Of a DNA stretch of 64,000 bases, positions 27,337-64,000 are shown piece after piece. Source of the stretch: Escherichia coli. GTDB lineage: Bacteria; Pseudomonadota; Gammaproteobacteria; Enterobacterales; Enterobacteriaceae. The position numbers and the translations under genes were made by a program. Each line of letters begins with the position of its first letter. The first letter of the stretch is position 1. The stretch lies in the NCBI RefSeq assembly GCF_029227855.1, contig NZ_CP074356.1; one strand, 5' to 3'. The notes under the pieces are model-generated. The model was given only the letters and a program-made list of their open reading frames with translations. It was not told the DNA's origin and ran no database searches.

Positions 27337-28362
27337 ATGAAAGTATCAACTCTTGGTATCGACTTGGCAAAGAACGTTTTTCAGCTTCATGGTGTCGATC
27401 ATGAAGGCCATACTATTTTGCGTAAAAAGCTCACCCGGGCTAAGTTTGTTCAGTTTGTGATTCAACTGGAACCTTGTCTGATTGGCATGGAAGCCTGCTC
27501 ATCCAGTCATTATTTTGCGCGATTATTCACCCGCTATGGTCATGAGGTAAAACTCATACCTCCGCAGTATGTGAAGCCTTATGTGAAAACGAACAAGACG
27601 GATGCAGCAGATGCTGAAGCAATCTGCGAAGCGGTAACCCGTCCGAATATGCGTTTTGTTCAGATAAAAACCGAAGAGCAGCAGGCCGTTTTAGCGTTAC
27701 ACACTGAACGGGGAATACTTATCCGTGAGCGGATTGCCTGTGCCAATAGTTTAAGAGCCACACTTGCTGAGTTTGGTATTACGATTGCGGCCGGACAAAA
27801 CCATTTAACCCGTGAGCTGCCAGCCATTCTGGAGGATGGCGAAAATGGTTTATCTCCCTTTGTCAGAACCAGCATCTACAGACAGTCTAAACATATCCGG
27901 GAACTTGAAGAACAAGTTAAACAGGTAGAAGAAGCTCTGGCCTCCTGGTATAGAACGCAGGAAGCCTGCCAGAGAATGGCCAAGATCCCGGGGGTTGGCA
28001 TGCTAACGGCCACTTATGTGGTAGCAGCAGTGGGTAATGCCCGACAATTCAGTACCGCAAAGCAGTTCGCTTCATGGCTGGGGCTGACACCAAAGGAACA
28101 TTCCAGCGGCGGGAAACAGCAACTGGGAGGGATCAGCAAACGTGGAGATGGATATTTCCGATACCTGCTGGTTCACGGCGCACGCGCACTTACCGCCTGG
28201 GTCAACCGAAACGGCGCGGTTGAGGAGAATTCCTGGCTTCAGGGACTCCTTGAGCGGAAGCACTACAATGTAGCTGTTGTCGCCATGGCGGCAAAAACAG
28301 CGAGGATCATGTGGTCAATATTGTCACACAATACTGAATATCAACCTCGGCAGCTCGCCTGA
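27337..28362 (+). CDS. IS110-family transposase/recombinase (DEDD RuvC-like N-domain plus C-terminal Ser domain)
   Basis: 341 aa; N-terminal GIDLAK, GMEACSS, DAADAEAI and C-terminal SSGG...GGISKRGD motifs typical of IS110/IS1111 transposases; resembles IS4321/IS5075 more than IS621. Confidence 0.9.
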   Translation: MKVSTLGIDLAKNVFQLHGVDHEGHTILRKKLTRAKFVQFVIQLEPCLIGMEACSSSHYFARLFTRYGHEVKLIPPQYVKPYVKTNKTDAADAEAICEAVTRPNMRFVQIKTEEQQAVLALHTERGILIRERIACANSLRATLAEFGITIAAGQNHLTRELPAILEDGENGLSPFVRTSIYRQSKHIRELEEQVKQVEEALASWYRTQEACQRMAKIPGVGMLTATYVVAAVGNARQFSTAKQFASWLGLTPKEHSSGGKQQLGGISKRGDGYFRYLLVHGARALTAWVNRNGAVEENSWLQGLLERKHYNVAVVAMAAKTARIMWSILSHNTEYQPRQLA

Positions 28363-30659: not shown

Positions 30660-31421
30660 ATGGCACAGGTCGCGATTATTACCGCCTCCGATTCGGGGAT
30701 CGGCAAAGAGTGCGCGTTATTACTGGCGCAGCAGGGGTTTGATATTGGCATTACCTGGCACTCAGATGAATAAGGGGCAAAAGATACCGCGCGTGAGGTA
30801 GTTAGCCACGGCGTACGTGCGGAGATCGTGCAGCTGGATCTCGGCAATCTACCAGAAGGGGCACTGGCGCTGGAGAAACTCATTCAACGGCTGGGGCGTA
30901 TTGATGTGCTGGTGAATAATGCGGGCGCAATGACCAAAGCGCCGTTTCTTGATATGGCTTTCGATGAGTGGCGCAAGATTTTTACCGTTGATGTCGATGG
31001 TGCATTTTTATGCTCGCAAATTGCTGCCCGCCAGATGGTGAAACAAGGGCAGGGTGGTCGCATCATCAACATTACGTCGGTGCATGAACATACGCCGTTG
31101 CCGGATGCCAGCGCCTACACAGCCGCTAAACATGCGCTCGGCGGGTTAACCAAAGCGATGGCGCTGGAGCTGGTCAGGCATAAGATTTTGGTGAATGCGG
31201 TTGCACCTGGGGCGATCGCCACGCCAATGAACGGCATGGATGATGGCGACGTGAAGCCCGGCGCGGAGCCTTCGATTCCCTTGCGGCGTTTTGGCGCAAC
31301 GCATGAGATTGCCAGCCTGGTGGTGTGGCTTTGTTCGGAGGGCGCAAATTACACCACTGGGCAGTCGTTGATAGTGGATGGCGGCTTTATGCTGGCGAAT
31401 CCGCAGTTCAAGCCAGAATAG
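30660..31421 (+). pseudogene. yohF: Short-chain dehydrogenase YohF with in-frame ochre codon at codon 38
   Basis: ATG at 30660, Rossmann SDSGIGK motif, then TAA at 30771..30773; same frame continues as an SDR to 31421. Confidence 0.8.
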
Positions 31422-46873: not shown

Positions 46874-48874
46874 TCATCCTTGTTGCTGAAGCATGGGGAA
46901 TAATTGTTCGCAAATCAAAACACCGTTATTCATTGCTTCTACCCGTGCCTCGCTTTCTGTATTACGAAATTGTGCCAACACATGTGCCAGCCGATAAAAA
47001 CCGACCGCGGTGAGGTCATTCGCCAGCAACTCTGCCTGACCAATAGCACTCTGTTCCTGATAGCGCCAGCCGTTATGGAGCAGTTGAATAAGTAACGCCT
47101 GGCAGCGCATCAGCAACTGATGAGCGGTAGACGGCACAGGCAAAACGCTGGCAGAAGGTAGCGGTGCCACAGGCGCAGTTTCTGCGTCCAGCGCCCAGGC
47201 GCGGGTTTTTGTCATCATCACCCGTGGTTCCAGTGTCAATTGCCCCTCTACAAAGCTGACAAAGCCAGAAACCAGACTCACGGGGTCGTCTGTTTGTTGC
47301 AAAAGCGCCGCCATGCGTTCAACGGCAAAAGGAGAACAGGCAGATGCGGGAAGGGATAACGTCAGCAGATTATCTTCACCTTCGCCGCTGATTACCTGCG
47401 CATCCAGCGTCTGGCGGCTGCTATCCCAACCGAGTGAAATACACTCAGCGACTGGCAGAATAAATAAGTTATCCACCTGATTAAGAGGCCGTATGCAGGC
47501 GGGGGGACGCTGGCGTAAATATTCCCGCAAAGCCACAATGCCCGGCTGGCGCAATGGCGCGCTCAACATTTGCCAGGCATCAGGCGACAGCGGCACAACG
47601 CTGCTTAAGCGGTTGCGGGTAGCTAACAGCAGCTCGCCATCGGCACTGCGTTTTGCTGCTTGTGAAACAATTTGCCCGCCCGCCAGTGCGCCAGCCTGAA
47701 AACTAAACAGCCGACGCGTAGCTGCCGGTGAGTTTTCCTGTTCACTTCGCGGCCAACTGCGCGAAAGGTGCAAAATACTGCCGGTGTCGGGATCGGTAAA
47801 CCAGATGCGTAAACCATAATGCTCAATATCCTGCCAGCAACGCATACCTAAAGACACCAGCCGCAGATGATCAAGCTTTGCTTCTCCGGCAATGCCAGAG
47901 CCAACGACCGTGCGCCACGGCACAGGAGGAACTTCACCAACACTGTCGCGCCGGGTCATCTCTTGCGCGCAATTTAATCGACTGTTTAATGCCGCAAGCT
48001 GACGTAAGCATTCTCCGGCATGATAGTGGCTGGCGCGGGCGTGGAAGGCATCAACGCTGGCGCGCAGTTGCCGTAGCGATTCACTCACCCAGCGCCAGTT
48101 GCAGCGTTCCGCCGCTTGCTGCGCGCGGCTGAAAGCAGCCTCGTAATGAATAAGCGGCTGGCTGATGCCGCCAAGCCATAACGCCTGGCTTAATTGCTGA
48201 ACATATTGACGACACGCGTCCCCCTCATCGTTGGCAAACGGATCGTCAGATGATGTGACGTGTTCGCTGCGCATCTGCCAGATTAAATGAGTAAATTCCG
48301 CTTGCTGCGCTTTGGCCTGGACAAAGGCCTGTACTGCCAGTACGACATGTTCGCAAAGTGTTCCTTCAATACAATCACAGCGAGCGAAACGAATGCTGCT
48401 GCGGGAATAAAAACGTACATCGCTCATCGGTAAGCGGGCAGAGGGAATTTCGCCCGGCGTACAGAACAACTCAATGGTGATGCCTTTAGCGACCAGTGCC
48501 TGTGCGCGTTTGCGGGTGGCATCGGGCAGGGTAGCCAGTTCTTCCAGCCAGATTGCCGGATCCCACTCTTCTTCTTTTTCCGTAGTCTGGGTGGTGGCGC
48601 AAAGTCGCTGATAACTTAAAACCAGCATCACGCGATGGCGGCACATGCCGCTGGCCCCGCAGCTGCACTGAGCCTCTTTCAGTGCCTGACCGTTCGCCAG
48701 CTGGGTACGGACACCGTCACTGAAGGTGGCGATTAAAGCGCCGTTCTCATGGCTGATTTCCGGGACGTTGCCATTTTCCAGTTCTTTAAGGCTGCGCTTA
48801 ACAAAACCGGCATTGCTTAACGCCGTCAAAGCTTGTGGTGTCAGTTCTAATAATTCCGGCCGTAGTGAATTCAT
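46874..48874 (-). CDS. yehQ: SWIM zinc-finger protein YehQ
   Basis: 666-aa ORF; CxC...CxH SWIM-like motifs; start overlaps yehP stop (ATGA). Confidence 0.8.
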   Translation of the reverse strand: MNSLRPELLELTPQALTALSNAGFVKRSLKELENGNVPEISHENGALIATFSDGVRTQLANGQALKEAQCSCGASGMCRHRVMLVLSYQRLCATTQTTEKEEEWDPAIWLEELATLPDATRKRAQALVAKGITIELFCTPGEIPSARLPMSDVRFYSRSSIRFARCDCIEGTLCEHVVLAVQAFVQAKAQQAEFTHLIWQMRSEHVTSSDDPFANDEGDACRQYVQQLSQALWLGGISQPLIHYEAAFSRAQQAAERCNWRWVSESLRQLRASVDAFHARASHYHAGECLRQLAALNSRLNCAQEMTRRDSVGEVPPVPWRTVVGSGIAGEAKLDHLRLVSLGMRCWQDIEHYGLRIWFTDPDTGSILHLSRSWPRSEQENSPAATRRLFSFQAGALAGGQIVSQAAKRSADGELLLATRNRLSSVVPLSPDAWQMLSAPLRQPGIVALREYLRQRPPACIRPLNQVDNLFILPVAECISLGWDSSRQTLDAQVISGEGEDNLLTLSLPASACSPFAVERMAALLQQTDDPVSLVSGFVSFVEGQLTLEPRVMMTKTRAWALDAETAPVAPLPSASVLPVPSTAHQLLMRCQALLIQLLHNGWRYQEQSAIGQAELLANDLTAVGFYRLAHVLAQFRNTESEARVEAMNNGVLICEQLFPMLQQQG

Positions 48875-50007
48875 GACTGAAGATTCTCCGCAAGCCAGGT
48901 CGCCAGTTCGCCCGGCGTCATGGCGGCTATTTGTGCACCGACATTAACCAGTGCCTGGGCCATATCGCGGTCATAGCAAGGTGTTGCGGTGCTATCGAGC
49001 GCCGCCAGTCCCAGCACTTTGACGCCGCTCTGGACACACTTTTTCACCTGATGCGTCAGCAATGATGATGAACCCCCTTCATAGAAATCGCTCACGAGGA
49101 TAATGACGCTTTTCGCTGGTTGTTCAATAAGTTGCCGACCATACTCCACGGCACTGGCGATATTGGTCCCGCCGCCCAGTTGTACTTTCATTAATAACTC
49201 TACTGGATCAGCAACGTCTGCCGTGAGATCAACGACGCTGGTGTCAAACGCCACCAGATGGGTACGAATGCCGGGTAACTGCCATAAACAGGCCGCCATC
49301 ACCGCAGAGTGGATCACCGAATCGACCATCGATCCGCTTTGATCAACCAGTAAGACCAGTTGCCATTGTTCGCTTTGGCGTTTAATGCGGCTGTTAAAGC
49401 GGGGGGATTCGATATACAACTTGTCGTGTTGCGGGTGCCAGTGTTGCAGGTTGGCGCGCAGAGTACTTTTGAAATCAAAGTTTCGCGCCAGTGGAATAAA
49501 TGAGCGGCGACGGCGATCGCGGACACCAGAAAAAGCCTGACGAACTTCCTTTGCCAGTCGCGCCATAATTTCTTCAACTACCTGGCGCACTATCCGGCGG
49601 GCGGCAGCCAGCACTTCGGGATTCATCAGATGTTTGGTGTGCAAAACGGCGCGTAACAGGCTTTCAGAAGGCTGCATACGTTCCAGCACGTCGAGATTCG
49701 TCAGCACATCTTCAATGCCGTAGCGCAGTACGGCATCGCTTTCCAGCCGCTCGATCACCTGTTGCGGAAACAGCGTGTGAATACTGTTGATCCACTCAGG
49801 GGTGGTGAGATTTGAGCCACCTAATCCACCAGAGCGTTCACCACGCTGGAGCCGTTCAGGATCGCGCCCATACAGCCACTCCAGCGCGTGGTCTATCTGC
49901 CGGGCGTTGTCATCCAGCCCACAAAGGGTCGTTTCTGCCGCTTCGCCAAGAATTAATCGCCAGCGTTGTAGCTCACGGGTGGTCAGAAGATCGTTCAGTT
50001 CAGACAT
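48871..50007 (-). CDS. yehP: von Willebrand factor A (VWA) domain protein YehP
   Basis: ORF 48871..50235 trimmed to MSELNDLL.. (378 aa); DxSGS MIDAS-like motif (VDQSGSM). Confidence 0.85.
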   Translation of the reverse strand: MSELNDLLTTRELQRWRLILGEAAETTLCGLDDNARQIDHALEWLYGRDPERLQRGERSGGLGGSNLTTPEWINSIHTLFPQQVIERLESDAVLRYGIEDVLTNLDVLERMQPSESLLRAVLHTKHLMNPEVLAAARRIVRQVVEEIMARLAKEVRQAFSGVRDRRRRSFIPLARNFDFKSTLRANLQHWHPQHDKLYIESPRFNSRIKRQSEQWQLVLLVDQSGSMVDSVIHSAVMAACLWQLPGIRTHLVAFDTSVVDLTADVADPVELLMKVQLGGGTNIASAVEYGRQLIEQPAKSVIILVSDFYEGGSSSLLTHQVKKCVQSGVKVLGLAALDSTATPCYDRDMAQALVNVGAQIAAMTPGELATWLAENLQS

Positions 50008-52231
50008 GGAAAACTCCCCAGTGTTGCAGCGATGCCAGTGCCTGCTGTTCGAGTTGTTGATGATGTGCAATGGCTTGTGGTGGACAATGCAACGGCATTT
50101 GCAGCGCTGAAACGGGAAGCTGTGCGAGCTGGTAATGCTCAAGCACCTGATGCGCCAGCGTCCCGCGTTCTCGTGGTGGTAGCCAGGCCATCGCTGCGCG
50201 TAAATCGGGCAGGGCGTTAATAAAATCGTCGTCACTCAGTTGATTTAAATGACTACTGAAACCGGCGATAAATGCCGGCTGACAGGCCAGTTGATGGCGG
50301 GCCAGCGCCAGCATCGTCAGCGCCGCTTCGGCACTGGCGTTGGGATGTTCCAGACGCATTAGTGCGCCAAGAGCCGCGCTGCGATCCAGCGCCGGGGCAT
50401 GAATCGCCTGACTGCGGCGCTCCAGTAAGGCTACCGCCGCAGAAAGCGAAACGCCGGGTAAATTAACGCCGCTATGTAGATCGCGCAGGATATGGCAAAG
50501 CGCCTGCCAGCTATGCAGGTGAGCGTGAAACTCCTTTTCCTCCGGTCTGCCGTTGGATTCACACAGCCAGAGTGTGCGATCGATAGCCGCGCATAACGTC
50601 GTCTGTAATATCTGCGCGCCTTGCATACCGCTAATTTCATCCAGCCGCCATAAGGCGTATAGCACTTCCAGCGCCTGGCCCATTTCGGCAAACTGATTTT
50701 CCTGGGCGATTAATAATGTAAGTTGCTCCAGTAATTGTTGACTGAAGGACGCCAGACCCGCTAACGCCGCCTGGCTAAGACATGTGGTGATACTGCCGAT
50801 TCCACCCGCGTCCAGCATATCGGCTTCTAATTTATTGCGTGCGGCTTCCTGGAGTGTGGCACCAAAGCAGGCGGCCTCAATCAATGCCGCATGCTGGCTA
50901 AGCGGGCGGGTTAATTTCCAGCGTTCTTCACCGTTGCCTGCAAGTGTCAGTGTGCTTCCCTGCTGGCGTACAATCCCTGGGATCTCCAGTATTACCAGCC
51001 GATGTAACACCTGACTTTGCGCCAGTCCATCGGGGGTAAAGCGATTTAAGGTAAGCTCTGCCGGAAGAGAGATTGTGGTACGTTCCAGTTCGCAGGTGAC
51101 ATCTTTTGGCAGAGGCGGCTGTGGCGTAGAGGGGGCAAGTTTACCGAATCCGCCACCCGCTAATGTGTCTATCAACGTTAGCAGAATCGGATCGGTATCG
51201 GGATGAATAACGCCGCGATAGCTCCACGGCAACGGCGCGTTCAAGGCTTCTTTAATCAGCGAGCCTGCTATGGCATCCAGCCAGTCAGTGCGTAACGGTA
51301 GTGTATGACCGCGCAACTGTGCCAGCGCCATCGCATGCAGATGAGCGGCAGCCATATCAGCGGTAGAAGCGGGCAATTTGTGCTGGCGCAAACGGGTAAG
51401 GATAGTTTTTAGCAGTTGTTCACCGGCCTGCTGTAGGCCCCACTGCCAGCACCAGTTTTGCCAGACCGGGGCAGGCATACCAGAAAGGTATCCTGCCAGC
51501 ACATCAAGGCGCTTTTCACTGTAGGGGGTGAGATAACAACCTGTAACGGCATCTGCCAGCTAGGGCAATTCCGGCGTGTTAATTTCCTGCGTGTATTCGC
51601 GCCACATCTTTGCCAGTGCCGGAGCATGCCAGCCGCCGCAGACGACTAACACGTCGCCATTGTTTTGCTGCATCGCCCATCCAATCCAGCGGGCCATAAA
51701 GGCTTCGCGCTGACGATTGAGGGCATCTCCGGGGGAATCGCCCCGCAGTTGTGCAAAATAGTGCGCCAGCGCAGAGGGTAATGCAGTTTGCTGGCTTTCA
51801 TCTTCGAACAAGTGATCCCACAGGGTGTCGCTGTTATCCATGCGGGTGGCACGCAGCAGTAAGGTCTGGCTGTCATCTTGCGTATCGGGTGATTCGTCTT
51901 CTTCTTCACTCTGCGCCCAGCAAGGCAAATCGATGAAGTAAGTTTGTGCCTGAATACGACGTGCGGCTTGTAGCGCCTGCCACTCCGGCGAAAATTCAGC
52001 AAATGGCGTCCAGGCACCACGCCCGGGGGCTGCACCGTCCTGATACTGGCAATAACTGTAAATAGCTACCGGAAGCTGGTGGGCTAAAAACAGTTCGTCT
52101 ACCCGGTCATTAAAATCAGCCGGGCCTTCAATCAACACGTATCGTGGCCGCTGGCTTTCGATTAACGATTTCACCAGCCGGGCGCAGGCCGGACTATGAT
52201 GCCGGATGCCGACAATTAACGGCTCGCTCAT
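50000..52231 (-). pseudogene. yehM: YehM, interrupted by a single in-frame amber codon
   Basis: ORFs 51560..52399 and 50000..51502 are in the same frame, separated only by TAG at 51560..51562; start MSEPLIVGIRHH at 52231 with GAGGAAAG RBS. Confidence 0.7.
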
Positions 52232-52241
52232 GCATCTTTCC

Positions 52242-53319
52242 TCACGGCAGGCGGTGGCGGGCTTGATAATAAGCCTGCCAGTGAGCTTCTTTATGTGTGG
52301 CGACACGCTGTTCGAAGTAACGGCGCAGACGCGCGCGATCTTCTTCGTTATCTTTAACGATGGTTCCGGCAATACAGTCCACCAGATCGGCTGGCTCACC
52401 TGCGCGATTCGCTAAAAACCAGGCGCGGACGCCCACTGCGTGGGCCACGTTCACGGCTTCAGCGGTGGATATAATTGCCGTCAGAGTATCCATTGACGTT
52501 TTCTTTTCGCCGTTGGCACGCAGATCGCGGAAGGTGCGGACCAGTAACTCCAGTACCGCGTCAGGCACTTTATGCGGAATACCGCTATGGGCCAGCAAAC
52601 GCGCCGAAGCACTGGCGACCAGTTCCAGCTCCTGGGCGAAATCCATAATCGGAAAGACGGTTTCAAAATCGAAGCGACGCTTTAGCGCGGCACTCATCTC
52701 ATTGACGCCGCGATCGCGGGTATTGGCAGTGGCAATAATATTAAAGCCTTCCCGCGCATAGAGCTGACTGGCTTCACCGGTGAGTTCCGGCACCGTCATC
52801 ACCCTGTCAGAAAGCATACCTAACAGACAGTCTTGTACTTCCAGCGGTGTACGCGTTATCTCTTCAAAACGGACGATTTTGCCGTCGCGCATTCCCTGGT
52901 AAAGCGGGGCAGGGACCAGTGCTTCCGTAGACGGACCATGGTTGATAAGCAGGGCGTAGTTCCATTTGATCTTCAGTAGTAGATGCGCCGCCCTGGATGG
53001 TTAACCCGGCATCGCCGCTAATAGCGGTTGCCAGTAATTCAGACAGGAGAGATTTTGCGGTGCCCGGTTCCCCCACCAACATCAAACCGCGCCCGGTGGC
53101 AAGAGTGACTAACATACGTTCGACAGCGGAGGGACTAATCACCACTTTACGGCTAATATTTTGCGCGCTATCGCCAAGGATAAAAGCACGGGCCGCAGGC
53201 AAACTTAACTGCCAACCGGGCGGGCAAGGTGCGTTATCATTTTGTTTTAATTTTGCCAGTTCATCGGCGTATAACACAGCAGCAGGCGGACGCTGCAGAT
53301 GATTATTCTGCGGTGACAT
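52242..53319 (-). pseudogene. yehL: MoxR-type AAA+ ATPase YehL, frameshifted
   Basis: Walker A GEPGTAKS lies in ORF 52864..53385; continuation ([26 protein letters not shown]) is in another frame from about 52965; total span 1078 nt is not a multiple of 3. Confidence 0.7.
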
Positions 53320-53431
53320 ATATTCATCCCTGAAATGTATTAATGAAATAAACGATATTTTACGCGCAATAAATGTTTGGCGCATTAGTTGTTTGAGCGA
53401 AAAATATCTGGAAAGCAGATCACAGTAAATA

Positions 53432-53466
53432 AAAAAACCTGCTGGTGAGGCAGGTTCTTTTATTTA
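53432..53466. terminator. Bidirectional rho-independent terminator
   Basis: aaaaaaa-cctgc-tggtgag-gcagg-ttctttt; A-run and T-run flank the stem, so it works in both orientations. Confidence 0.6.
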
Positions 53467-53513
53467 CTATTTTCAGGCCCAACACCGCAGCCTGTGCAAC
53501 ATCGTGTTCCAAC
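53432..53513 (-). ncRNA. Candidate antisense antitoxin sRNA (OrzO-like)
   Basis: Minus-strand -35 TTGCAA (53548..53543) and -10 TATAAT (53525..53520) put the start near 53513; first 18 nt are complementary to 53662..53679 in the toxin 5' UTR at 17/18; ends at terminator 53432..53466 (about 81 nt). Confidence 0.4.
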
Positions 53514-53751: not shown

Positions 53752-53841
53752 ATGGACACGCTGACACAAAAGTTAACCGTGCTCATTGCCGTACTGGAGC
53801 TATTAGTGGCTCTGTTACGGTTGATTGATTTGTTGAAGTAA
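53752..53841 (+). CDS. zorO: Type I toxin-like small hydrophobic peptide (ZorO-like, 29 aa)
   Basis: AAGGAG RBS at 53741..53746 then MDTLTQKLTVLIAVLELLVALLRLIDLLK; single amphipathic helix like TisB/DinQ-type toxins; not recalled at this position in K-12. Confidence 0.6.
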   Translation: MDTLTQKLTVLIAVLELLVALLRLIDLLK

Positions 53842-53894: not shown

Positions 53895-54215
53895 CTATTT
53901 TTCTATTTCTTGGTTGAATATATTCTGTAGTTCGCGATTAAAAATGGCTATTACCGTTTCTGGTGATTCGCCCCGTAATTTTCGCTCATCAATAAACTCA
54001 TCTCTTATATAAATCAACGCATCATTTATTAGCGGGTCGACATCCTCTCGATCACGTTGATGAAATGTTGGATGTAGCCGGAATCGCTCCAGTCGGTAGA
54101 CGGAACCTGTAAATAATTCAGAGCATTTATGGATCTCAAGTCTGAAGGAAAACGGATCTTCAGGTACAGGGACCTCATAATCGTAAATAGCAACCAGCTC
54201 TTTTTGCACGATCAT
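53895..54215 (-). CDS. yehK: Uncharacterised protein YehK
   Basis: 106-aa ORF downstream of yehI. Confidence 0.65.
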   Translation of the reverse strand: MIVQKELVAIYDYEVPVPEDPFSFRLEIHKCSELFTGSVYRLERFRLHPTFHQRDREDVDPLINDALIYIRDEFIDERKLRGESPETVIAIFNRELQNIFNQEIEK

Positions 54216-54275: not shown

Positions 54276-57200
54276 TTAATGGAAAATGACGTCGGGTGCG
54301 CTTAACGCTTCACTCAAATCAAACACATCAAGTTCGGCAAAAGTGACAGATTTATTGTCACGGTATACATGAAGAGAACGGAAGCTCATTAGCGCTTTGC
54401 TATCAACATTGTAGTGGTTAAAACCGGATGAAAACTTAAGGACCAGCCGGTACTCGCCCAGGTCATAGACAAATGCATTCTCATAGCCTGACTCCCAGCC
54501 TTTGTATCGCATTCCCATAAGTTGCCCAACGGTAGCAGATTTACCTTCCCAGCGATTCAAACTATTACTGGCTGACTCGTCAGGCGTGAGCAGTACTGTG
54601 CGCCGTGCCAATTGGCGAAAAGGCGGCATAATTTCGTAATCGGCAAAAAGCTGTGCAAACTCACTGCGCATTTCTGCTGCCATTTCTAACGGGTGGGCAA
54701 TGCCAATCAGAGCATCGGCAGGCAGGTCAATTGGCTCATCTTGCTCATTGCAGAACTCCCCCTCAGCGGCCACACGAAAGGCGTTGAGTAAACGACGCGG
54801 TTCATTTGCCGGATAAACACCCCATATTAATCGCTGAGTAACCAGACGGGTAAAGGGATGATTAACAAACAGAGAATGAAAATCTGCCAGCGACCAGCGT
54901 CGGGTGGTGCGCAGGGCAGTTTCAAGACGCGGGAGCAGGTTTTTGCTCACCTGAGTGGCATCTTTTTTTAGCCCTTTTAGTCGGGCCAGTGCCTCGGGTG
55001 CTTTCAGTTGATCGTCATCGGCGCGCAACCGGGGAACGCTTTTCTGGCGAACGTTTTGCTGATCAAAGATAACCGGGTTAAGGTTTTCATCGAAGCGAAC
55101 GGTAAATTGCCGTGGACCAAAATCAAAAATCAACGCCTGCGGATCATCAAGACCCAGTGTTGGGACTAATCTGTCCGCTAACTGTTCCTGGCTTAGCCCT
55201 CGATTTTCTGCGACCACCTGAAGAAATTCCGCCGCGTTATCACGTAAGGGGCGGGATTTCGCCCGTTGCGATATATGATGCAGCTGTATCAGTGCCATAT
55301 CATTATTCATCTGAGTAAGTATGTTCAGGCCGCTGACGGCACGGGCAGATTTGCCTTCCTGTGGCCAGGCAAGGATCTGTGTCGTCAGATCCCGTGCCGT
55401 GCTTTCGTCGCCAAAGAGACTTAACGCCAGAAATGCCCAGTTGTCTTTTGCGGGAGCACCAGCTTGTTGCCACGCGGTGAAAAGATCCCAGGCAAAAGCT
55501 GCCAGCGTTTGCGGCTGGCAGAAAGTTTTCAGTTGTTCCAGTCCGCTATAAACGTCCGCCCTGGGTAAAGCGCAGCATTTCGCCGATAATTTCCAGTGCG
55601 TCATCGGTAACAGGCTGATTATTCGTGATAAGGCGCGGCCTGGACCACATTGCCGGCTGCCAGAAATCAGGGGCTTTTGGAATGCGTGTCGGGTAAATCT
55701 CTATTGGACTCTGTTTAAGTAAATGCTCCAGGGCAGGCCATACATCTGTACGCTGCCAGCGGTTTGCCGCGGTTTGCAGCAATTCACCATGTCCCTGTTC
55801 GTAAAGTAAACGTAGGGCAAGTAATGCAGCTTCGCTATTATCGCTGGATTTGGTGAAGACAAGAGGGATAAGTGCAGTAGCCGTATGTTCCGGCCATTGT
55901 AAAATCCACTGGCGAGCCAGATCACGCTGCGCCGCGAAACGTCGCCAGACGCGGGCAACGGGCAGGGCCAGTTCTGTTGCGCCAAAATTTAAAATTAACG
56001 GAAATGTTTCTTTTGGACGATATGAAAAAGCCAACAGCAGACCTGGTAGAGCATCCAATCCGAAGATACTGAGAAAATAGTCCTCACCCGCTAACAGATG
56101 CTTTTTCTCATTGATACGTAGCCAGAAAGTCAAAGCCATCTCACGCGGCAACTGTGCCAATAAATACAGGTTCCAGATACTCTTTTCCCGACGATAGCGT
56201 GAGTAGCTGTCATTTTCCCATATGTTAATTAACACTTCTACGTGACCGCTGCGAAGCGCCTGTTCTGCTAATTGTGCTTCCGGGGAGTTCCAGCCATTCA
56301 GGATCTCTTCAACCCGCCCCTGGTAGTAATGCCACTGAACAATGAGTGAATTGCGTGCAGCATCCAGTTTTCCGGGGAGTATATAATTCAGAAACAGCCA
56401 TACATCATCTCCAAAACCCAGCTCCTGTAGTACAACTCGTCCACTTTTATGTTCCATGCGTTCCGAAAGAGATTCCGTGCTGAAATAACGGGCAGACTCA
56501 GTGGCGGCAAGCCTCTCTCGTTCGCCTGGTTGCCAGTAAACTTGCGGCGTTAATTCGAACGGTGCCAAATCAAGACGTGGAACTGTCATTTTTTTCTTAC
56601 TACGCCACGGTGGTGAAACGAGGATTTCAGGCATTTGGCTGTTATCGGTGCTATCAATAACCGTTTTAGGCGGTGCCGATAAATAACTATTCAGCACTGA
56701 CCGGGCTTGAGTACTTAACCACGGCATCACCTCTTCTGCCAGTTGTGGCTGCGATGCCATCAGCGTTTGTAACAGCGTACGCCAGTATTCATCACGTGCT
56801 TTTTGCTGTGCAGGCAGCTTTTTGTCTTCGATGATTGGATAACCAGGGCGCGTAGGTGGTTCTTTTAGCGCCAGCAGTTCTGCCAGTGCGGCAAGCGTCG
56901 CATGGGGGAAATTTTTACTGTATTTAGCTACACGTTGCAGGCTGGGTTTGTTTTTATCAGCAACTAACAGCAGGGTGCGGATGACCTGCGGATGGTTAAT
57001 TTGTACCAGCAGACTGCCGCAATCTTCTTTATGGGCATACATTGCCAGGCGTGGAACGGCTGCCAGTCCTTGTTCGCGCAAAAGGGCAGCGCAGGCCGCG
57101 TAGCCGAAGTGGTTTTCATGCGACATGTAGCTGGCTTCCCGATCGCTAAATATATCCTGGCTCCAGTAGCGTTCGAGTTTTCTCACCGCTCTGGGGTCAA

Positions 57201-57906
57201 TAGCAACAACTTTTAACCACTCCTTAGAATGAAAATGAGTCCACGGGCATTCAAGGCTTACCAACTCATTGGCGATTTCTGGTTTTTCCGGGAGGATCAG
57301 AGCAATAAAAGGGCGGCGAACTTTGGTTATTCCTGGCAGTGCGGCAATGAGTTTGTCGGCGCAACGCTGCCAGCTGCTTTCCTCTGCCAGAGAGAGATGC
57401 TTACGCAGTCGGAGATCGAATTCGTTATAGGTTTCTGATCGATAACCATAGCCATAATCCTCGTTCTGATACTGCAATGTCACTAGCAGAGGATCACTTT
57501 CATAACATCGTGTAATAAACTGGCGTGCAATCACCACCTCAGTCGCATATTCCAGTCCCTCTTGTTGGACGATTTCGTCGAGCAACTGTTGGCTATCATT
57601 TTGCGCGATACAGGCTAGCGCCGCCATTGTCCGGGCCGGAACTGAGGGTTTGTGTTCGCCAATCAAGTTGATGGCCTGCGTAATGGCCGACTGCCACTCC
57701 AGTGAAAAATTTTCATAACGCCAGACAATGTTTTTTTTCTTCTCAGCTTTTTGTAGCAATTCATCACCCAGTGTCTGGATGAGGCTTTCAGTGATAACAG
57801 GCACCGGTTCGCCCGGCCAACTGCGATGGCTGAGCGGCGTTTTGCCTTTTTTATATTTCAGTTCCACTTGGGCGTTATCCGCCAGCCACGGTAATTCCTT
57901 GTCCAT
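54276..57906 (-). pseudogene. yehI: YehI (DUF4132 family giant protein), frameshifted
   Basis: ORF 55546..57906 (786 aa) and ORF 54276..55604 (442 aa) overlap in different frames; together they align end-to-end with the intact neighbouring paralogue. Confidence 0.65.
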
Positions 57907-57915
57907 GCTCTTTCC

Positions 57916-60900
57916 TTATTCAAACAGGGCTTCAATATCGTTAATGAGTTCGCTGGCGGTGATGTCGTCGAGCACGGAGAACTGCGCTTCCTGAGTTGAA
58001 TTACTCCCCCAGCCATAGCTTTCCGCTTTGCCTTCCCATAGCCACAGCTTGCTTAAGACCTGCTCAGCGCTAAGATCGGCTGGTGACATACCCACCGCAA
58101 AACCTTCGTCGATTTCCATGATTAACGACCAGCGACCGAGAGGTTTGATCATCCATCCGATCCAGCCTCCATCCTGTGGTTCGCCCTTTATCCAGCCTTT
58201 ATTTGCCAGCCCCATGACCCGGCCGCTCGGGCATTTTCTGCCTGCCCAGCGGGTCAGTTCGCTGGCGTTGCGCTCGGCTTCTGTCAGGGCGTAACTGTTA
58301 CGTTCAAGCTGACGGAACGGTGGTAGCAGTTCGTAGTCGGCAAAAAGCTGACCAAAGGCGACAGCATCCGTCGGTGATATTTCCAGAACGTGAGGAATGC
58401 CAACAGAGATATCGCCTTCCTGCAAGGTGAAAAGATCATCGTCAGCGGTGCTGTAGCTGTTATCTTCCGCCACCCTAAAGCACGCCTGTAGCTGGTTTTC
58501 GGCGCTATAAACGCCCCAAATCAGACGGCGGGTTAAGTGACGAACCAGCGGATGCTCAACCAGGAAGAGCTGAAAGTTTTCCGGCGACCAGCGGCGGCGC
58601 AGGCACATGGCGGATTCCAGCCTTGCTACCTGCTGGGCGGCGACGGTACGCGCATCTTTTTTCAGCAATTTGTAGCGGTTAACAGCATCGTTTGCCTGTG
58701 ATTCATCATCGCTTTTATTGGGTTTAGGTAAGTCTTTCAGGCGGCTGCCGGAAACATCGCGCACAAACGGTTTTAAGGTTTCATCAAAGCTGACGGTGAA
58801 CTGCCGTGGGCCAAAATCCAGCAGCAGCGAACCGTTATCATCCAGACCGAGAGCCGGTGCTAACCGATCTTCAAGCTCCGCTACCGTCAGTTCGCGACTT
58901 TCGGCAATGTCGGCAATTTTCTCTTTCGCCCGCTCCTGTAATGCTTTGAATTTCAGTTTCTGGGCAATGCCGTTAAGCTGCATCAGGGCGATATCACTAC
59001 TGATAGCGGCGAGGATATCCAGCCCGACGGTGGCGCGTTTATGCTGGGATTCACCAGGCCAGGCGCGTATTAATGGCGTCAGTTTGCGGGCGGTGTTATC
59101 GTTACCGAGAACGCCTAACGCAGTGAACGCCCAACTCTCTTTCGACGGCGCGCCAGCGGTCTGCCAGGCGGTAAACAGATCCCAGGCAAATTCAGCCAGT
59201 GAGTCGGCGGTACAGGCATCTTTCACCTGCAATAATCCCGGATACAGCGCCTCCTCCTGATGGAAGCGGAGCATTTCACCGAGGTGCTGGAGTGCGCTAT
59301 CGGGCAGTGATTGGGCATTTGCTTTTAATACCGGGCGGGTCCAGATCGATGGCTGATAAAAGGCCGGAAGAGTGGGGATTTTTGTCGGGTGATTATCTAA
59401 GGGATCGAGCGCAAGCATAGCGTTCACCGCATTTGTTACTTCCGGCTGGTTATAACGCCGGGCGATTTCTTGCAGTAATGGTTGATGACCGTTTTCGGTA
59501 AGCATACGCAATGCAGCGCGGGCGTTATCCTGTGCTTCACCGGCTTTGCCGAGCGCCGCAGACAGCAGGCCGGTAATGGCGTGTTCCGGGTATTTCAGCA
59601 GCCAGGTGCGGGCGTCTTGTCGTAGGGTTTTGAGTTTGTTGAAGGCGCGGGCGACGGCAGGTGCCAGCTCACTCGCTGCGAAGTAATTCGTTATGGGCAA
59701 GGCTTCCTGTGGATAGCGTGCAAGTGAGTTTACTAACCCAGGTAATCCTTTGAGTCCAAAATGTAACATGGCGTATTCGGTATCGGTATGCGGAGATAGA
59801 GTAAGGGCATTCCATGCTCTTACTGCTTTCTCCAGCGGCAATGTTGTCAAAATCCCCAAATGCCAATAATGCCCGGTAGGTGAATGAAACACCTTAAATT
59901 CACTTATTAAAGTTGAATAATCTTCATTTAGCCATGCCTCAACTACCGCTTCGGGAGCTTTAATATATGTACCAGCGATCCGTCGTTGAAAACCCATCCT
60001 TGCCAACAGATTGGCAGTACTTTCTTCATGACTAACCGTGATGTGTTTTGAATACCAGATATATTTCGCCAAAAGTTGATTACTGATTTCTTCTGTCAGA
60101 TAACTGATTGGCTCAATACCTAATGGTGCTAAATCAAGCACTGGAATCGGCGATTTTTTCTTTTTCGAAAGCCATGGTGGGGAGACTACTATGGCCGGCA
60201 GTAGATCGGCGCTGGCATGGTTTGAGGGCTGTGTCAGTTGTTGCTGGCATGATTTCAGCACTGCAACTGCGGGTGTCGAAAGCCAGGGAATGACCTGTTC
60301 TGCTAGTGTCGGTTGCGAGATAAGCATCGTCATTAGCATAATGCGCCAACTATTCTCTTCTTTTTGCACTAGAAGTTCCGCCAGTGCTGCCAGTGCTGCG
60401 TGTGGGAACGCAGCGCAGGCTTTCGTCATTCGATCGTGACAGCGTTTAGTATGCCCTGCTACACGTATAAGCAGTGTTAATGCGAACGGATGATTGATAT
60501 GACGCAACACATCGGCGCAGTAGTCACTTGCGACATAGGGAGCAAATCGGGGCAGGGCCGCAACACCTTGCTCCTGTAATACGGTGGCTGACCATATCGC
60601 ACCACAATAGTAATCATCAAAAATGGCATATGGCTCGTGATATTTTTCTAATGAGGCAAGAATGTGCTCATCAGTCGCCACTATTTTTAGCCACTCCAGC
60701 GAGGGTAATTTCTTTTGCCCCAGTAGACGCTGGGCAATTTCATGTGCAATTTCTGGTTTTTCGGGCAATAACAAAGCAATTAATGGTTGCCGCCATTCTG
60801 GAATATGTGGAACTGCGGCAATAAGTTTTTGTGCACATTTTTGCCAGAGAGACTCTTCCGCCAGTGATAAATGTTTACGTAGGCGTAATTCAAAGCTGGA

Positions 60901-61710
60901 ATATTGCTGCAAATAATCAGGTGAAATGCCAGACGACAGGAAAACAATATTATTGTTGACATAATCCCATTCAATAGATATTTGTTGAAGATGTATTATT
61001 ACATCAGTAGCATATTCCAGACCGCCTTCCTGAATAATCTGATCCATAACATCCGCACGCTCTTTATATCTCGTGCAGTGCAGTTCAAGTGCCGCGAGTA
61101 CAGCCATTACCGGTGATGGTAATTTTGTCGTTTTCGGGCTGTTAATCAGATCGATCGCCTGAGCGATGAAGTTTTGCCACTCTAAAGTACAGGCGCTGAA
61201 GTCAAATGTAGCTGTTTTGTTATCCCGTTGCGACACGCCACAGGCTAAGCGACGTAACTGGGTTAATTTATCTACAGGTGTAACAGGATCTCCGGGAAAG
61301 CGGCGATGGCTTAAGGTGGTGGGTACGACTTCAAGCGGAAAAACGACAGCAATATCTTTTGCCAGCCACGGTAAAATAACGTCTGTATTTTTGTCAGCCA
61401 CGTAGAATTCTGGTGTAACTGAGGGCTGTTCCTGAATGATGGTAGAAAAGTCAGATAATTCGAGAGATTTCGTTACCGTTCGAGTATGTTTCGATGTAGC
61501 ATTCTCCGCATGTTCCACATACCCCTTTTTCGTTTTCTCCGCAATCAGCTTGAGTTCCGCTTTTTCCGCCGCCGCAGCATCTGCAAAGCTTTTTACCTGA
61601 CTTTGCCCGTTGGTGCCGACTTTGCCCCAACTGATATTCAGTTCGTTTCCCTGCTGCTCCACCGCCCAGAATTTATGTGATTTTTCGTCCTGATAAATAT
61701 AGGTTTTCAT
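57916..61710 (-). CDS. molR: MolR-like giant protein: N-terminal WGR domain plus DUF4132-type body, intact 1264 aa
   Basis: N-terminus MKTYIYQDEKSHKFWAVEQQGNELNISWGKVG..KKGY is a WGR domain; body paralogous to yehI and to the upstream ORF; conserved C-terminus ITASELINDIEALFE. Confidence 0.65.
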   Translation of the reverse strand: MKTYIYQDEKSHKFWAVEQQGNELNISWGKVGTNGQSQVKSFADAAAAEKAELKLIAEKTKKGYVEHAENATSKHTRTVTKSLELSDFSTIIQEQPSVTPEFYVADKNTDVILPWLAKDIAVVFPLEVVPTTLSHRRFPGDPVTPVDKLTQLRRLACGVSQRDNKTATFDFSACTLEWQNFIAQAIDLINSPKTTKLPSPVMAVLAALELHCTRYKERADVMDQIIQEGGLEYATDVIIHLQQISIEWDYVNNNIVFLSSGISPDYLQQYSSFELRLRKHLSLAEESLWQKCAQKLIAAVPHIPEWRQPLIALLLPEKPEIAHEIAQRLLGQKKLPSLEWLKIVATDEHILASLEKYHEPYAIFDDYYCGAIWSATVLQEQGVAALPRFAPYVASDYCADVLRHINHPFALTLLIRVAGHTKRCHDRMTKACAAFPHAALAALAELLVQKEENSWRIMLMTMLISQPTLAEQVIPWLSTPAVAVLKSCQQQLTQPSNHASADLLPAIVVSPPWLSKKKKSPIPVLDLAPLGIEPISYLTEEISNQLLAKYIWYSKHITVSHEESTANLLARMGFQRRIAGTYIKAPEAVVEAWLNEDYSTLISEFKVFHSPTGHYWHLGILTTLPLEKAVRAWNALTLSPHTDTEYAMLHFGLKGLPGLVNSLARYPQEALPITNYFAASELAPAVARAFNKLKTLRQDARTWLLKYPEHAITGLLSAALGKAGEAQDNARAALRMLTENGHQPLLQEIARRYNQPEVTNAVNAMLALDPLDNHPTKIPTLPAFYQPSIWTRPVLKANAQSLPDSALQHLGEMLRFHQEEALYPGLLQVKDACTADSLAEFAWDLFTAWQTAGAPSKESWAFTALGVLGNDNTARKLTPLIRAWPGESQHKRATVGLDILAAISSDIALMQLNGIAQKLKFKALQERAKEKIADIAESRELTVAELEDRLAPALGLDDNGSLLLDFGPRQFTVSFDETLKPFVRDVSGSRLKDLPKPNKSDDESQANDAVNRYKLLKKDARTVAAQQVARLESAMCLRRRWSPENFQLFLVEHPLVRHLTRRLIWGVYSAENQLQACFRVAEDNSYSTADDDLFTLQEGDISVGIPHVLEISPTDAVAFGQLFADYELLPPFRQLERNSYALTEAERNASELTRWAGRKCPSGRVMGLANKGWIKGEPQDGGWIGWMIKPLGRWSLIMEIDEGFAVGMSPADLSAEQVLSKLWLWEGKAESYGWGSNSTQEAQFSVLDDITASELINDIEALFE

Positions 61711-61722
61711 TGCAAAGTCCTT

Positions 61723-64000
61723 TTAATCAAAAAGTGATTCGATGTCGTTAATGAGTTCGCTGGCGGTGATGGCATCAAGCGCGGAGAACGTGAGCGAGGG
61801 CTGTGTACTGTAGCGTTCCCCTGGTGAAGTGATTTTTACGCTTTCAACAGGTAGCAGGTCGCTATACCCCGTTTCGCCATAAATTAATGAAAAATGTTCT
61901 GTTTCAAGTTCGAGAGCGCCATAAGGGGTAGATTTGCGCATCGCATAGACGCTGCCGCTTTCTTCCAGACGTTGCCAGCCTCGACGTTCCAGCCCGACAA
62001 TGCGCCCGGCCTGGCAAAGACGTCCTTGCCAGCGTATCAATTCATGGGTATCACGTTCATTATCAGTAAGGTGGTAATAACCACGATCGAGTTGGCGAAA
62101 GGGAGGAAGCTTTTCGTAATCAGCATAAATTTGCCCAAATGCAGTGGCGGATTCAGGAGATATTTCCAGCACATGCGGTATACCGATGTTTCCTGCTGGC
62201 AGCGTGAATAACTCATCCTGCGCATCGCTGTAAGTGCTGTCTTCTGCGACCCGGAAGCAGGCGATCAGCGTGTTTTCCTCAGTATATACCCCCCATAACA
62301 CCCGTCGGGTTAAGTGACGTACCAGCGGATGCTCCACCAGAAACAGGCGGAACTGCTCTGCCGTCCAGCGTCTGCGCTGGCACATATCCTGCTCCAGACG
62401 ATCAATCTGCTGGCTGGCAATGGCGTGCACATCTTTCTTCAATTGTTTGAAGAGGTTAACGGAGTCAGTTGCCAGTGTTTGATCATCGCTCTGATTTGGT
62501 TTGGGTAAATCTTTCAGGACTTTGCCGTTTGCATCGTGCACTACAGGTTTTAAGGTTTCGTCAAAACCAACGGTGAATTGACGTGGGCCGAAATCCAGTA
62601 TCAGCGAGCCACTGTTATCAAGCCCTAAATCTGGAGCCAGGCGGTCTTCCAGTTCAGCCATAGTCAGCCCACGGTTTTCAGCAACTATGTTGATTTTCTC
62701 GCGGGCATGTTCCTGTAATGCTTTGAATTTAATTTTTCGCGCGATGCCATTAAGCAGCATTAGCGCAACATCGCTGCCAATATCAGCTAATACATCCAGC
62801 CCGTAAACCGCGCGTTTATGCTGGGATTCACCCGGCCAGGCACGGATAAGCGGGGTTAATTTACGTGCGGTGTCGTCATTGCCTAAAATCCCAAGCGAAG
62901 TAAATGCCCAGTTTTCTTTTGCGGGTGCGCCAGCTTCTGTCCATGCCGTGTAGAGATCCCAGCCAAAGTCAGCCAGTGATTCGTGGGTGAAGGTCTCTTT
63001 GATGGTCGCCAGCCCAGCGTAGGAGGTAATGTCGCGTGGAAAGCTCAACATTGTGCCCAGGTGGCGCATAGCGTCATCTGGCAGAGGCAGGTTGTTACTT
63101 TTAAGCCGTGGTCTGCGCCATAAGGTGAACTGATAAAAGCCGGGCAGTGGGGCGATTTTAGCGGGATATTCTTCCAGCGGATCGCTATCGAACAATGTTG
63201 CCAGCGCAGCTAAAACATCAGGTTGGTTGTATCTCCGGCCGATTTCTTCAATCGTTTCTCGCTGGTTTAATTTCACTAGCAGGCGGAATGCCTGGCGGGC
63301 ATATTCCCGATTTTGGCACGGTTTGCCCAGCGCCAAAGGCAGTAGCCCGGCGGCGGCATGGCGCGGGTTATTTGCCAGCCAATTAATGGCATCCTTGTAA
63401 GCCATTTTTTTCTGTAACCGCTGCGCCATTGGTAAGGCTAGTTCACTGGCCCCAATAAAGAGGGTGAATATCCACAGTCGTTGATGATCTCGTTGCAAGC
63501 AGGTCATAAACGCAGGAATGGCCGTACTACCAAAAACTGCCAGAATCTCTTTCTCACCTGAATATCGCTCCTCAATGATTATTTGGTTGAGAAATGAAAT
63601 CGCCTGTTGTCCCGGTAAGTAACAAAGCGCAGATAGATTCCAGCTTTTGTTGGCATTGTTGTGATATTTCGCAAACTCAGCTTTTAGTGCTGGAAAATCA
63701 AAGCGCAACAAGGCATCAACAGCGCTTTGCGGTATATATTTTTTTTCATGTAAGTCATCTTCGCAATGCAGCCATTCATTAAAACCTAATTGCCAAAGGA
63801 TTTGTTGTTCTGGTGTAAAAGGAATGAAAGATGTCTCCCAGCTTTCTTTTTCAATTAGTGGCAGGTCGGTAAATAAGGTTTGCTGTGATGACTGATATTG
63901 CGCGATTTCACTGAATCTGGATATGTCAGTATGACTGATTAACTCTGTAATTCCTGGCGTGATGTCAGTGACTGCAGGGATGGGAAGCACCGGTAAATCA
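61723..64000 (-). CDS. Third YehI/MolR-family paralogue, 5' end beyond window
   Basis: Frame stays open to the window edge; 755+ aa paralogous to the 57916..61710 product; C-terminus ITASELINDIESLFD. Confidence 0.7.
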   Translation of the reverse strand, partial: DLPVLPIPAVTDITPGITELISHTDISRFSEIAQYQSSQQTLFTDLPLIEKESWETSFIPFTPEQQILWQLGFNEWLHCEDDLHEKKYIPQSAVDALLRFDFPALKAEFAKYHNNANKSWNLSALCYLPGQQAISFLNQIIIEERYSGEKEILAVFGSTAIPAFMTCLQRDHQRLWIFTLFIGASELALPMAQRLQKKMAYKDAINWLANNPRHAAAGLLPLALGKPCQNREYARQAFRLLVKLNQRETIEEIGRRYNQPDVLAALATLFDSDPLEEYPAKIAPLPGFYQFTLWRRPRLKSNNLPLPDDAMRHLGTMLSFPRDITSYAGLATIKETFTHESLADFGWDLYTAWTEAGAPAKENWAFTSLGILGNDDTARKLTPLIRAWPGESQHKRAVYGLDVLADIGSDVALMLLNGIARKIKFKALQEHAREKINIVAENRGLTMAELEDRLAPDLGLDNSGSLILDFGPRQFTVGFDETLKPVVHDANGKVLKDLPKPNQSDDQTLATDSVNLFKQLKKDVHAIASQQIDRLEQDMCQRRRWTAEQFRLFLVEHPLVRHLTRRVLWGVYTEENTLIACFRVAEDSTYSDAQDELFTLPAGNIGIPHVLEISPESATAFGQIYADYEKLPPFRQLDRGYYHLTDNERDTHELIRWQGRLCQAGRIVGLERRGWQRLEESGSVYAMRKSTPYGALELETEHFSLIYGETGYSDLLPVESVKITSPGERYSTQPSLTFSALDAITASELINDIESLFD

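Follow-up and report, generated by a model that had tools for sequence, protein, structure and literature searches.

Old, fast-evolving WGR–DUF4132 giants beside a MoxR/VWA module: conservation, recombination and piecemeal decay of the yehI–molR array in Escherichia coli

MoxR-type ATPases of the AAA_5 family and proteins with a VWA/MIDAS domain form pairs, CbbQ–CbbO and NorQ–NorD among them, and the working model accepted for such pairs has the ATPase remodel a client to which the VWA protein is bound. YehL is one of the seven named MoxR subfamilies, and the RavA–ViaA pair of E. coli has been characterised (PMC3893208). Our literature searches on yehL, yehM, yehP, yehQ and yehI, on WGR combined with MoxR, SWIM and vWA, and on WGR with phage defence found no functional study, and those on DUF5682 returned zero papers. 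Here we examine the yehL locus in a 64,000-nucleotide stretch of E. coli DNA (contig NZ_CP074356.1; ‘the window’), where it is preceded by a tandem array of three giant genes of the DUF4132 family. The genes are already catalogued, under RefSeq names, Pfam families, the YehL subfamily of MoxR proteins and the ‘DUF4132 region’ of papers on ST131, and no new entity is described; what we add is the chimeric origin of the two-copy haplotype found in most E. coli, gene conversion of the WGR segment, the age of the trio, the contrast in rate with YehL and a cross-phylum census of the operon.

Over its last 10 kb, the window matches the E. coli JNEC-KY178 chromosome (NZ_AP045174.1) at 100% identity, and part of this stretch is matched in 5404 of 5426 complete E. 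coli genomes. A first-pass annotation of the window had described three adjoining, related giant genes on the minus strand. The list of open reading frames (54276..55604, 442 aa; 55546..57906, 786 aa; 57916..61710, 1264 aa; and 61723..63990, extending past the window end), the RefSeq annotation of JNEC-KY178 (yehI ‘frameshifted’, a 1264-aa ‘WGR and DUF4132 domain-containing protein’ and a 1265-aa ‘DUF4132 domain-containing protein’) and the identities between the proteins agree with that description. Amino-acid identity is 43% between the middle and third proteins, 38% between the middle protein and YehI and 31% between the third protein and YehI, in each case over nearly the whole length and with E = 0 or <1e-170; judged by these alignments, the paralogue relationship is far beyond chance. 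All three proteins belong to the DUF4132 (PF13569) or ‘MolR-YehI’ family, the Pfam matches having E values of 3e-51 (middle), 8.9e-48 (third, residues 999–1182) and 1.2e-46 (YehI). The middle and third proteins also belong to the WGR family (PF05406; third protein, residues 5–67; E 1.1e-17 for both), and a Pfam search of YehI found no WGR match. The annotation was therefore sound in its gaps of 9–12 bp (9 and 12 nt as measured), its intact middle gene with an N-terminal WGR, its yehI without one and its third gene running off the window, and needs amending in that it had overlooked the WGR of the third copy. That copy is whole in JNEC-KY178 (1265 aa, WP_001215556.1, WGR and DUF4132); its start and promoter lie beyond the window end. 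The middle gene is the orthologue of K-12 yehF/yehH, the old ‘molR’, with 92% nucleotide identity.

The giants are part of an operon that recurs far outside E. coli. The DUF4132 family comprises 8901 representatives at 50% clustering (E up to 0.001), and a scan of one genome per species gave more than 537 relatives, the 72 best loci of which, from Enterobacterales, Burkholderiales, Xanthomonadales, Myxococcota, Geobacterales and mycobacteria, made up our operon census. Genes of the YehL, YehM, YehP and YehQ families were all found on the same strand within 10 kb at 48 of these 72 loci, some of them at 14 and none at 10, several of the last being short contigs or having a flank taken up by a long array. 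The number of DUF4132 copies was one in 49 loci, two in eight, three in six, four in three and five in one, and a WGR usually starts at least one DUF4132 protein of each array. With two to five copies in 18 loci, tandem multiplication is recurrent in the family and no oddity of E. coli. Metagenomic relatives show the same operon, with WGR–DUF4132 once or twice followed by AAA_5, DUF5682, VWA and SWIM, and in one of them a histidine-kinase fusion is followed by a MoxR gene. No sixth conserved neighbour gene was found in the census loci. The results show a conserved five-family system: one to six or more DUF4132 giants, then YehL, YehM (DUF5682), YehP (VWA/MIDAS) and YehQ (SWIM). The window itself has the gene content of a YehL-type MoxR/VWA system, though its yehL and yehM are pseudogenes.

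Two further arrangements were seen. In Massilia (L078, L085, L096 and L105), five to six full or partial WGR–DUF4132 copies lie upstream of a single yehLMPQ-like module, which is the extreme of the family's copy-number variation. At another locus (L032, 146–4875), the genes before a distant WGR–DUF4132 gene encode an HSP90-like HATPase_c_3 protein and two unknown proteins in place of the MoxR module, perhaps as a different set of partners.

The trio is old. Assembly GCA_033836465.1 (L029), from another enterobacterial genus, carries apbC, metG, two WGR–DUF4132 genes, one DUF4132-only gene, yehL and yehM; it probably belongs to the Klebsiella oxytoca complex, as judged from matching relatives in K. 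oxytoca, K. grimontii and K. spallanzanii. Its three giants pair one-to-one with those of E. coli as best matches, copy 1 with the third protein (55% identity), copy 2 with the middle protein (60%) and copy 3 with YehI (60%), which means that the trio is older than the split of these genera. That the trio arose by recent tandem duplication is ruled out by the 31–43% identity of the paralogues together with these one-to-one orthologues. Over the same distance the YehL proteins are 91% identical, and the giants have thus evolved several times faster than the ATPase. Per 100 residues, identity between E. coli and L029 is 32–61% in the N-terminal 700 residues and 65–82% in the C-terminal 500. Within E. 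coli, the ratio of nonsynonymous to synonymous substitution rates (dN/dS) between K-12 and strain 4621 is 0.18 for yehI, 0.14 for yehQ, 0.13 for yehM, 0.065 for yehP and 0.05 for yehL, the flanking genes giving 0–0.08. Constraint is relaxed, although selection remains purifying.

Most E. coli carry two giants rather than three, and these genomes have a recombinant origin in common. The first-pass annotation had ascribed to K-12 an intact yehI and a fragmented molR. The K-12 annotation bears out both states: metG is followed by yehF, which encodes a WGR protein, then by the pseudogene yehH and by yehI, which is intact (1210 aa), yehF and yehH being the pieces of molR, with a joint 92% DNA identity to the middle gene. 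What that description lacked is that K-12 holds two copies, not three, the body of the third gene being absent from K-12 by sequence comparison. The third gene is present at a coverage of at least 80% in 1629 of 5426 genomes (30%), with alleles 87–100% identical, and the remaining genomes match it over its first 197 nt only. The junction was placed with diagnostic columns, defined as fixed differences across six three-copy genomes. The K-12 upstream region and first ∼160 nt are third-like, and the sequence is middle-like from ∼nt 168; likewise, all six two-copy genomes tested (K-12, E2348/69, C311, Ec-042-T5, PSJ-22 and O145:H28) resemble the third gene as far as +15 or beyond and the middle gene from +168. 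A third-like 5′ end on a middle-like body implies that the two-copy state is derived, and the comparison shows that it arose by a ∼3.8-kb deletion through recombination between the WGR-coding 5′ ends. Approximately 70% of E. coli, including K-12, are thereby shown to carry a two-copy third::middle chimera, so that K-12 ‘molR’ is a recombinant besides being a pseudogene.

The deletion endpoints coincide with the part of the two genes that is most alike. At their WGR-coding 5′ ends (61504–61710 against L003 25653–25855), the third and middle genes share 83–88% DNA identity, the upper value applying to nt 9–203 of the middle gene, against ∼43% identity for the remaining protein. Nucleotide identity of the WGR segment is 83% between the third and middle genes of E. 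coli and 77% between copies 1 and 2 of the second genus, compared with 71–73% between orthologues of the two genera. Paralogues within a species are thus closer than orthologues between genera, which points to concerted evolution by gene conversion. The deletion that gave rise to the two-copy haplotype used the WGR conversion tract as its substrate.

Loss of the system in E. coli has also proceeded gene by gene. We surveyed the annotation of 14 genomes picked across the similarity range, a small sample in which phylogeny was ignored, and found 12 of 36 DUF4132 genes to be pseudogenes, with differing lesions; the paralogues are clearly not uniformly intact across the species. The middle copy is inactivated in 8 of the 14 genomes, by a frameshift in K-12, E2348/69, CUVET19-1704 and O157 (where the gene is also ∼800 nt shorter), by IS1 in AR_0058, by a split in SC455 and by a stop codon in C311 and O145:H28. 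For yehI the figure is three of 14 (this strain, C311 by a frameshift and Ec-042-T5 by a stop), and for the third copy one of the eight three-copy genomes (O157, a stop). The whole system is intact only in 4621, DETEC-S586 and PSJ-22. In general, then, lineages do differ in which copy survives, as the first-pass annotation had proposed, but the yehI lesion of the window marks no lineage. The survey shows a system that is dispensable in E. coli and decays piecemeal, the middle copy being often inactivated.

The ATPase module of the window has been affected too, RefSeq giving yehL of JNEC-KY178 as ‘frameshifted’ and yehM as having an ‘internal stop’. The yehL lesion is an 11-bp deletion at window position 52963, in a stretch that ∼215 genomes match at ≥99%. 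In yehM there is an in-frame TAG at 51560–51562; ∼370 genomes match the 126-nt stretch around it at ≥99%, a figure that is an upper bound for carriers of the TAG, as 99% over 126 nt permits one mismatch. Because relatives share both lesions, the module was dead before the yehI lesion (if that is real) arose. Inactivation is concentrated in the cluster, at three of its eight genes against one of the 43 other genes of the window (Fisher p = 0.01). Identity to strain 4621 is 99.95% to the right of ∼53065 and ∼98% to the left, a shift that indicates a recombination boundary inside yehL.

The frameshift that the first-pass annotation placed near 55546..55604 of yehI was located by alignment to strain 4621 (NZ_CP103479.1), which is nearly identical and has no broken gene at this locus. 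Between 53066 and 64000 the two differ by four single-nucleotide polymorphisms and one 2-bp deletion, at 55549/55550, which changes GGA CGT TTT TAT AGC on the gene strand to GGA CGT TTA TAG, reducing T5 to T3. The resulting YehI, of 786 aa, is without its DUF4132 module. With a 121-nt query centred on the site, the deletion was found in one of 5225 genomes, that of JNEC-KY178, and it is therefore private rather than a lineage marker. A homopolymer assembly error, the gene being intact in the actual strain, is possible though somewhat unlikely. The lesion does sit in a five-base run and occurs in that single genome, and the nearest relatives differ from this 10-kb stretch by that indel and the four polymorphisms alone. 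However, the loss is of 2 bp in a short run, where the typical error is 1 bp in a long run, and there are no frameshifts among the other 43 window genes. In another 50 kb sampled from this assembly, frameshifts occur only in two type III secretion genes, sctC and one of the YscQ family, in a region that we take to be the ETT2 island, often degenerate in E. coli, and in no housekeeping genes; with so few frameshifts elsewhere, the assembly does not look indel-ridden. An indel-ridden assembly behind all three pseudogenes is in any case ruled out for yehL and yehM, whose lesions are common to hundreds of genomes, and since these two genes are truly dead in the lineage, more decay is to be expected. 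The yehI frameshift, if real, is one more private step in the decay of the locus; as it stands, it is a single-genome event of uncertain reality.

Control of the array has been touched on in the literature, where molR is listed in a review among the LexA-regulated genes with a known SOS box (PMC6590174), and where its promoter has been mapped as activated by BglJ–RcsB and not repressed by H-NS (PMC3950696). Taking CTG-N10-CAG with an AT-rich spacer at a promoter as our criterion, we found a LexA-type box, CTGGATAAAATTACAG, beyond the window end (L001 19531–19546), where it precedes the first gene's ATG by 10–25 nt, and a near-identical box at the same position in GCA_033836465.1. A motif of this type occurs at that position in three of the 65 loci tested, in Escherichia and Klebsiella only, so that the putative SOS control would be local rather than family-wide. 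In JNEC-KY178 an IS200C copy (L001 19620–20330), absent from strain 4621, lies between metG and the first DUF4132 gene, ∼100 nt upstream of the ATG, with the box in between; it could alter the mapped BglJ–RcsB/LexA-controlled promoter.

Each giant is predicted, from models of its structure, to consist of an N-terminal WGR, a HEAT-like alpha-solenoid (∼800 residues) and, at the C-terminus, a conserved alpha/beta DUF4132 module (∼300 residues), the last of which, as modelled, resembles no enzyme. Against the sequences of the PDB, the middle protein was matched through its WGR module alone, and the DUF4132 family profile gave extra weak matches to designed alpha-helical repeat proteins. The nearest solved relatives of YehL in the same search are the AAA domains of midasin, and YehM and YehQ had no solved relatives among those sequences. 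No nuclease, protease, NADase or pore-forming domain was recognisable in any component by profile or structure searches.

We tentatively favour, at a little less than an even chance, a model in which the giants are alternative nucleic-acid-binding adaptor scaffolds that dock on a split midasin-like AAA+/MIDAS motor and are induced by DNA damage in enterobacteria. The giants would act as alternative adaptor or sensor scaffolds, with their WGR, together with the SWIM of YehQ, binding nucleic acid and their fast-evolving solenoid binding a variable ligand. Docking onto the YehP–YehL pair would fall to the conserved C-terminal module. That pair would work as a split midasin, in which the MIDAS would grip the complex while the AAA+ ring dismantled or remodelled it. 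DNA damage would switch the array on through the LexA-type box in Escherichia and Klebsiella. In favour of this model we count the linkage to YehLMPQ, the age of the trio, the substitution ratios, the likeness of YehL to midasin and the SOS box.

Several observations weigh against this model. Strain M217, of the same group as the window strain, has both the yehL and the yehM lesion, but its DUF4132 genes are all three intact. Survival of the giants next to a dead ATPase module in relatives such as this one, taken with the frequent pseudogenes, could indicate that the module is dispensable to the giants, or else that selection acts on nothing here in those strains. Some DUF4132 relatives are solitary, with no ATPase module nearby, one of them standing among Rhs/PAAR toxin and immunity genes. 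The LexA box is ruled out as a feature of the whole family by its presence at so few loci. Finally, an adaptor role and a client role for the giants are not separable from sequence.

A competing account is a dedicated anti-phage or conflict-defence system, with diversifying giants that sense phage proteins or DNA and with YehLMPQ as effector or activator. It fits the fast evolution of the sensor-like parts beside a conserved ATPase, the allele diversity in E. coli (87–100% DNA identity for the third gene, 86–100% for the middle protein), the polymorphic presence or absence of the third copy, the amplification to five to six tandem copies in Massilia and the position of some relatives next to AbiEii or among Rhs/PAAR toxin/immunity genes; HEAT-repeat sensing, moreover, is known from DSR2 (PMC10981675). 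Nevertheless, none of the eight locus proteins has a match in PADLOC-DB 2.0 at E up to 0.01, no effector domain is recognisable, and the array has a fixed core position by metG in 5415 of 5426 E. coli genomes, which is not that of a mobile defence island. We consider this account unlikely, though a live alternative. Near end-to-end matches to PHROG families of unknown function were also obtained (phrog_20839, for example, at 1689 bits; the others are 36602, 28101, 30700, 33984, 31592, 29006 and 36295); these families probably derive from chromosomal DNA caught in prophage calls and do not point to a phage origin.

A further account, that the E. coli array is a functionless relic drifting to loss and that its lesions are neutral decay with no mechanistic information, appears improbable. 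It draws on the 12 pseudogenes among 36 copies, on the ∼215 genomes with a dead ATPase module and on ST131, where a resistance transposon was found inside the ‘DUF4132 region’ of 184 isolates and is tolerated there by sublineage L1a (PMC9334617). Set against this are the yehI dN/dS of 0.18, which indicates purifying selection, the persistence of all three copies, in one-to-one orthology, since the Klebsiella-like genus diverged, and the existence of wholly intact systems in several lineages of an operon conserved across phyla. That the giants are transcriptional regulators of molybdate metabolism is very improbable, as this has in its favour only the historic name ‘MolR’, still propagated in databases, against proteins in which profiles and structure comparison find just WGR, solenoid and DUF4132, with no helix-turn-helix or other regulator domain, a gene that is a pseudogene in K-12, and partners that make up an AAA+/VWA machine.

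The positions of the genes and other features of the window are collected in Table 1. Both spacers of the array are purine-rich and resemble ribosome-binding sites.

Table 1. Window coordinates of the DUF4132 array, the yehK–yehQ genes and other features.
Feature	Position	Strand	Description
Third paralogue (adjoins metG)	61723..64000	-	3′ 2278 nt of a 3798-nt gene inside the window
Spacer, third/middle gene	61711..61722	-	12 nt, AAGGACTTTGCA; AAGGA ribosome-binding site
Middle paralogue	57916..61710	-	Intact, 1264 aa
WGR-coding segment of middle gene	61504..61692	-	Residues 7–69 (Pfam)
DUF4132 segment of middle gene	58192..58749	-	Residues 988–1173 (Pfam); inside the conserved C-terminal alpha/beta module
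Spacer, middle gene/yehI	57907..57915	-	9 nt, GGAAAGAGC; GGAAAGAG ribosome-binding site
yehI	54276..57906	-	DUF4132 without WGR; pseudogene here; 3631 nt against 3633
yehI lesion site	55546..55550	-	2-bp deletion in T5 run (gene strand); TAG at 55546–55548
yehK	53895..54215	-	106 aa, follows yehI; intact here
29-aa hydrophobic open reading frame	53752–53841	+	MDTLTQKLTVLIAVLELLVALLRLIDLLK; between yehK and yehL
OrzO-P antitoxin RNA	53431–53506	-	Rfam RF02083, 101 bits; between yehK and yehL
yehL	52242..53319	-	MoxR/AAA_5 ATPase; pseudogene
yehM	50000..52231	-	DUF5682; pseudogene
yehP	48871..50007	-	VWA (CoxE-type), partner of the ATPase; intact
yehQ	46874..48874	-	SWIM zinc-finger, last gene in module; intact
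yohF	30660–31421		Short-chain dehydrogenase/reductase (SDR) oxidoreductase; annotated internal stop
IS110-family ‘RNA-guided transposase’ gene	27337–28362		Between dusC and yohP

Several of these features lie outside the five-family system. The small gene yehK carries a frameshift in E2348/69, AR_0058 and SC455, and in GCA_033836465.1 no gene is called between yehL and the third DUF4132 gene; yehK looks like a recent and unstable addition. The OrzO-P RNA and the 29-aa open reading frame are a single copy of a Zor-Orz type I toxin–antitoxin locus, which has been described at this site in O157:H7 and is absent from K-12 (PMC2887945). The IS110-family gene is not there in strain 4621. Across the first 46 kb of the window, yohF is the one additional pseudogene.

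The five-family system is widespread across bacterial phyla, and its three-gene form takes up ∼18 kb of the best-studied bacterial genome. Natural strains with a fully intact system have now been identified, K-12 not being among them, and the fast evolution of the giants relative to the ATPase, together with the LexA-type box, offers handles for making the function testable. It is possible, though on balance doubtful, that the locus represents a new class of surveillance system, in which multiple fast-evolving WGR–HEAT sensors would feed one split midasin-like motor, respond to damaged or foreign nucleic acid and be under SOS control in enterobacteria, the losses in E. coli then reflecting a fitness cost.

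In comparison with known systems, the giants resemble DSR2 in being large single polypeptides, fast-evolving and with a long alpha-solenoid that possibly recognises variable ligands; DSR2, however, has its own Sir2 NADase effector, whereas no effector is recognisable in the DUF4132 proteins, which also lack a PADLOC match. With PARP1–3, whose WGR serves in the sensing of DNA breaks, they share the W-G-R core and weak sequence matches to the PARP3 WGR. They are nevertheless not DNA-damage sensors of the PARP type, which join WGR to an ADP-ribosyltransferase domain: the giants lack that domain as well as zinc fingers and BRCT, and their WGR is fused to a solenoid and DUF4132. The Yeh module is like the MoxR/VWA pairs in that a MoxR-type AAA_5 gene adjoins a VWA/MIDAS gene in one operon, and unlike them in that it always adds DUF5682 and SWIM and is preceded by at least one giant DUF4132 gene; in this window, moreover, the ATPase gene itself is a pseudogene. 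Midasin (Rea1), which carries six AAA domains and acts in eukaryotic ribosome assembly, has the same functional pairing of AAA_5 and MIDAS, the MIDAS being C-terminal. Its linker is unrelated to the giant DUF4132 partners, and whilst midasin is one polypeptide, of ∼4700–4900 residues in the solved entries, the Yeh parts are encoded by separate genes.

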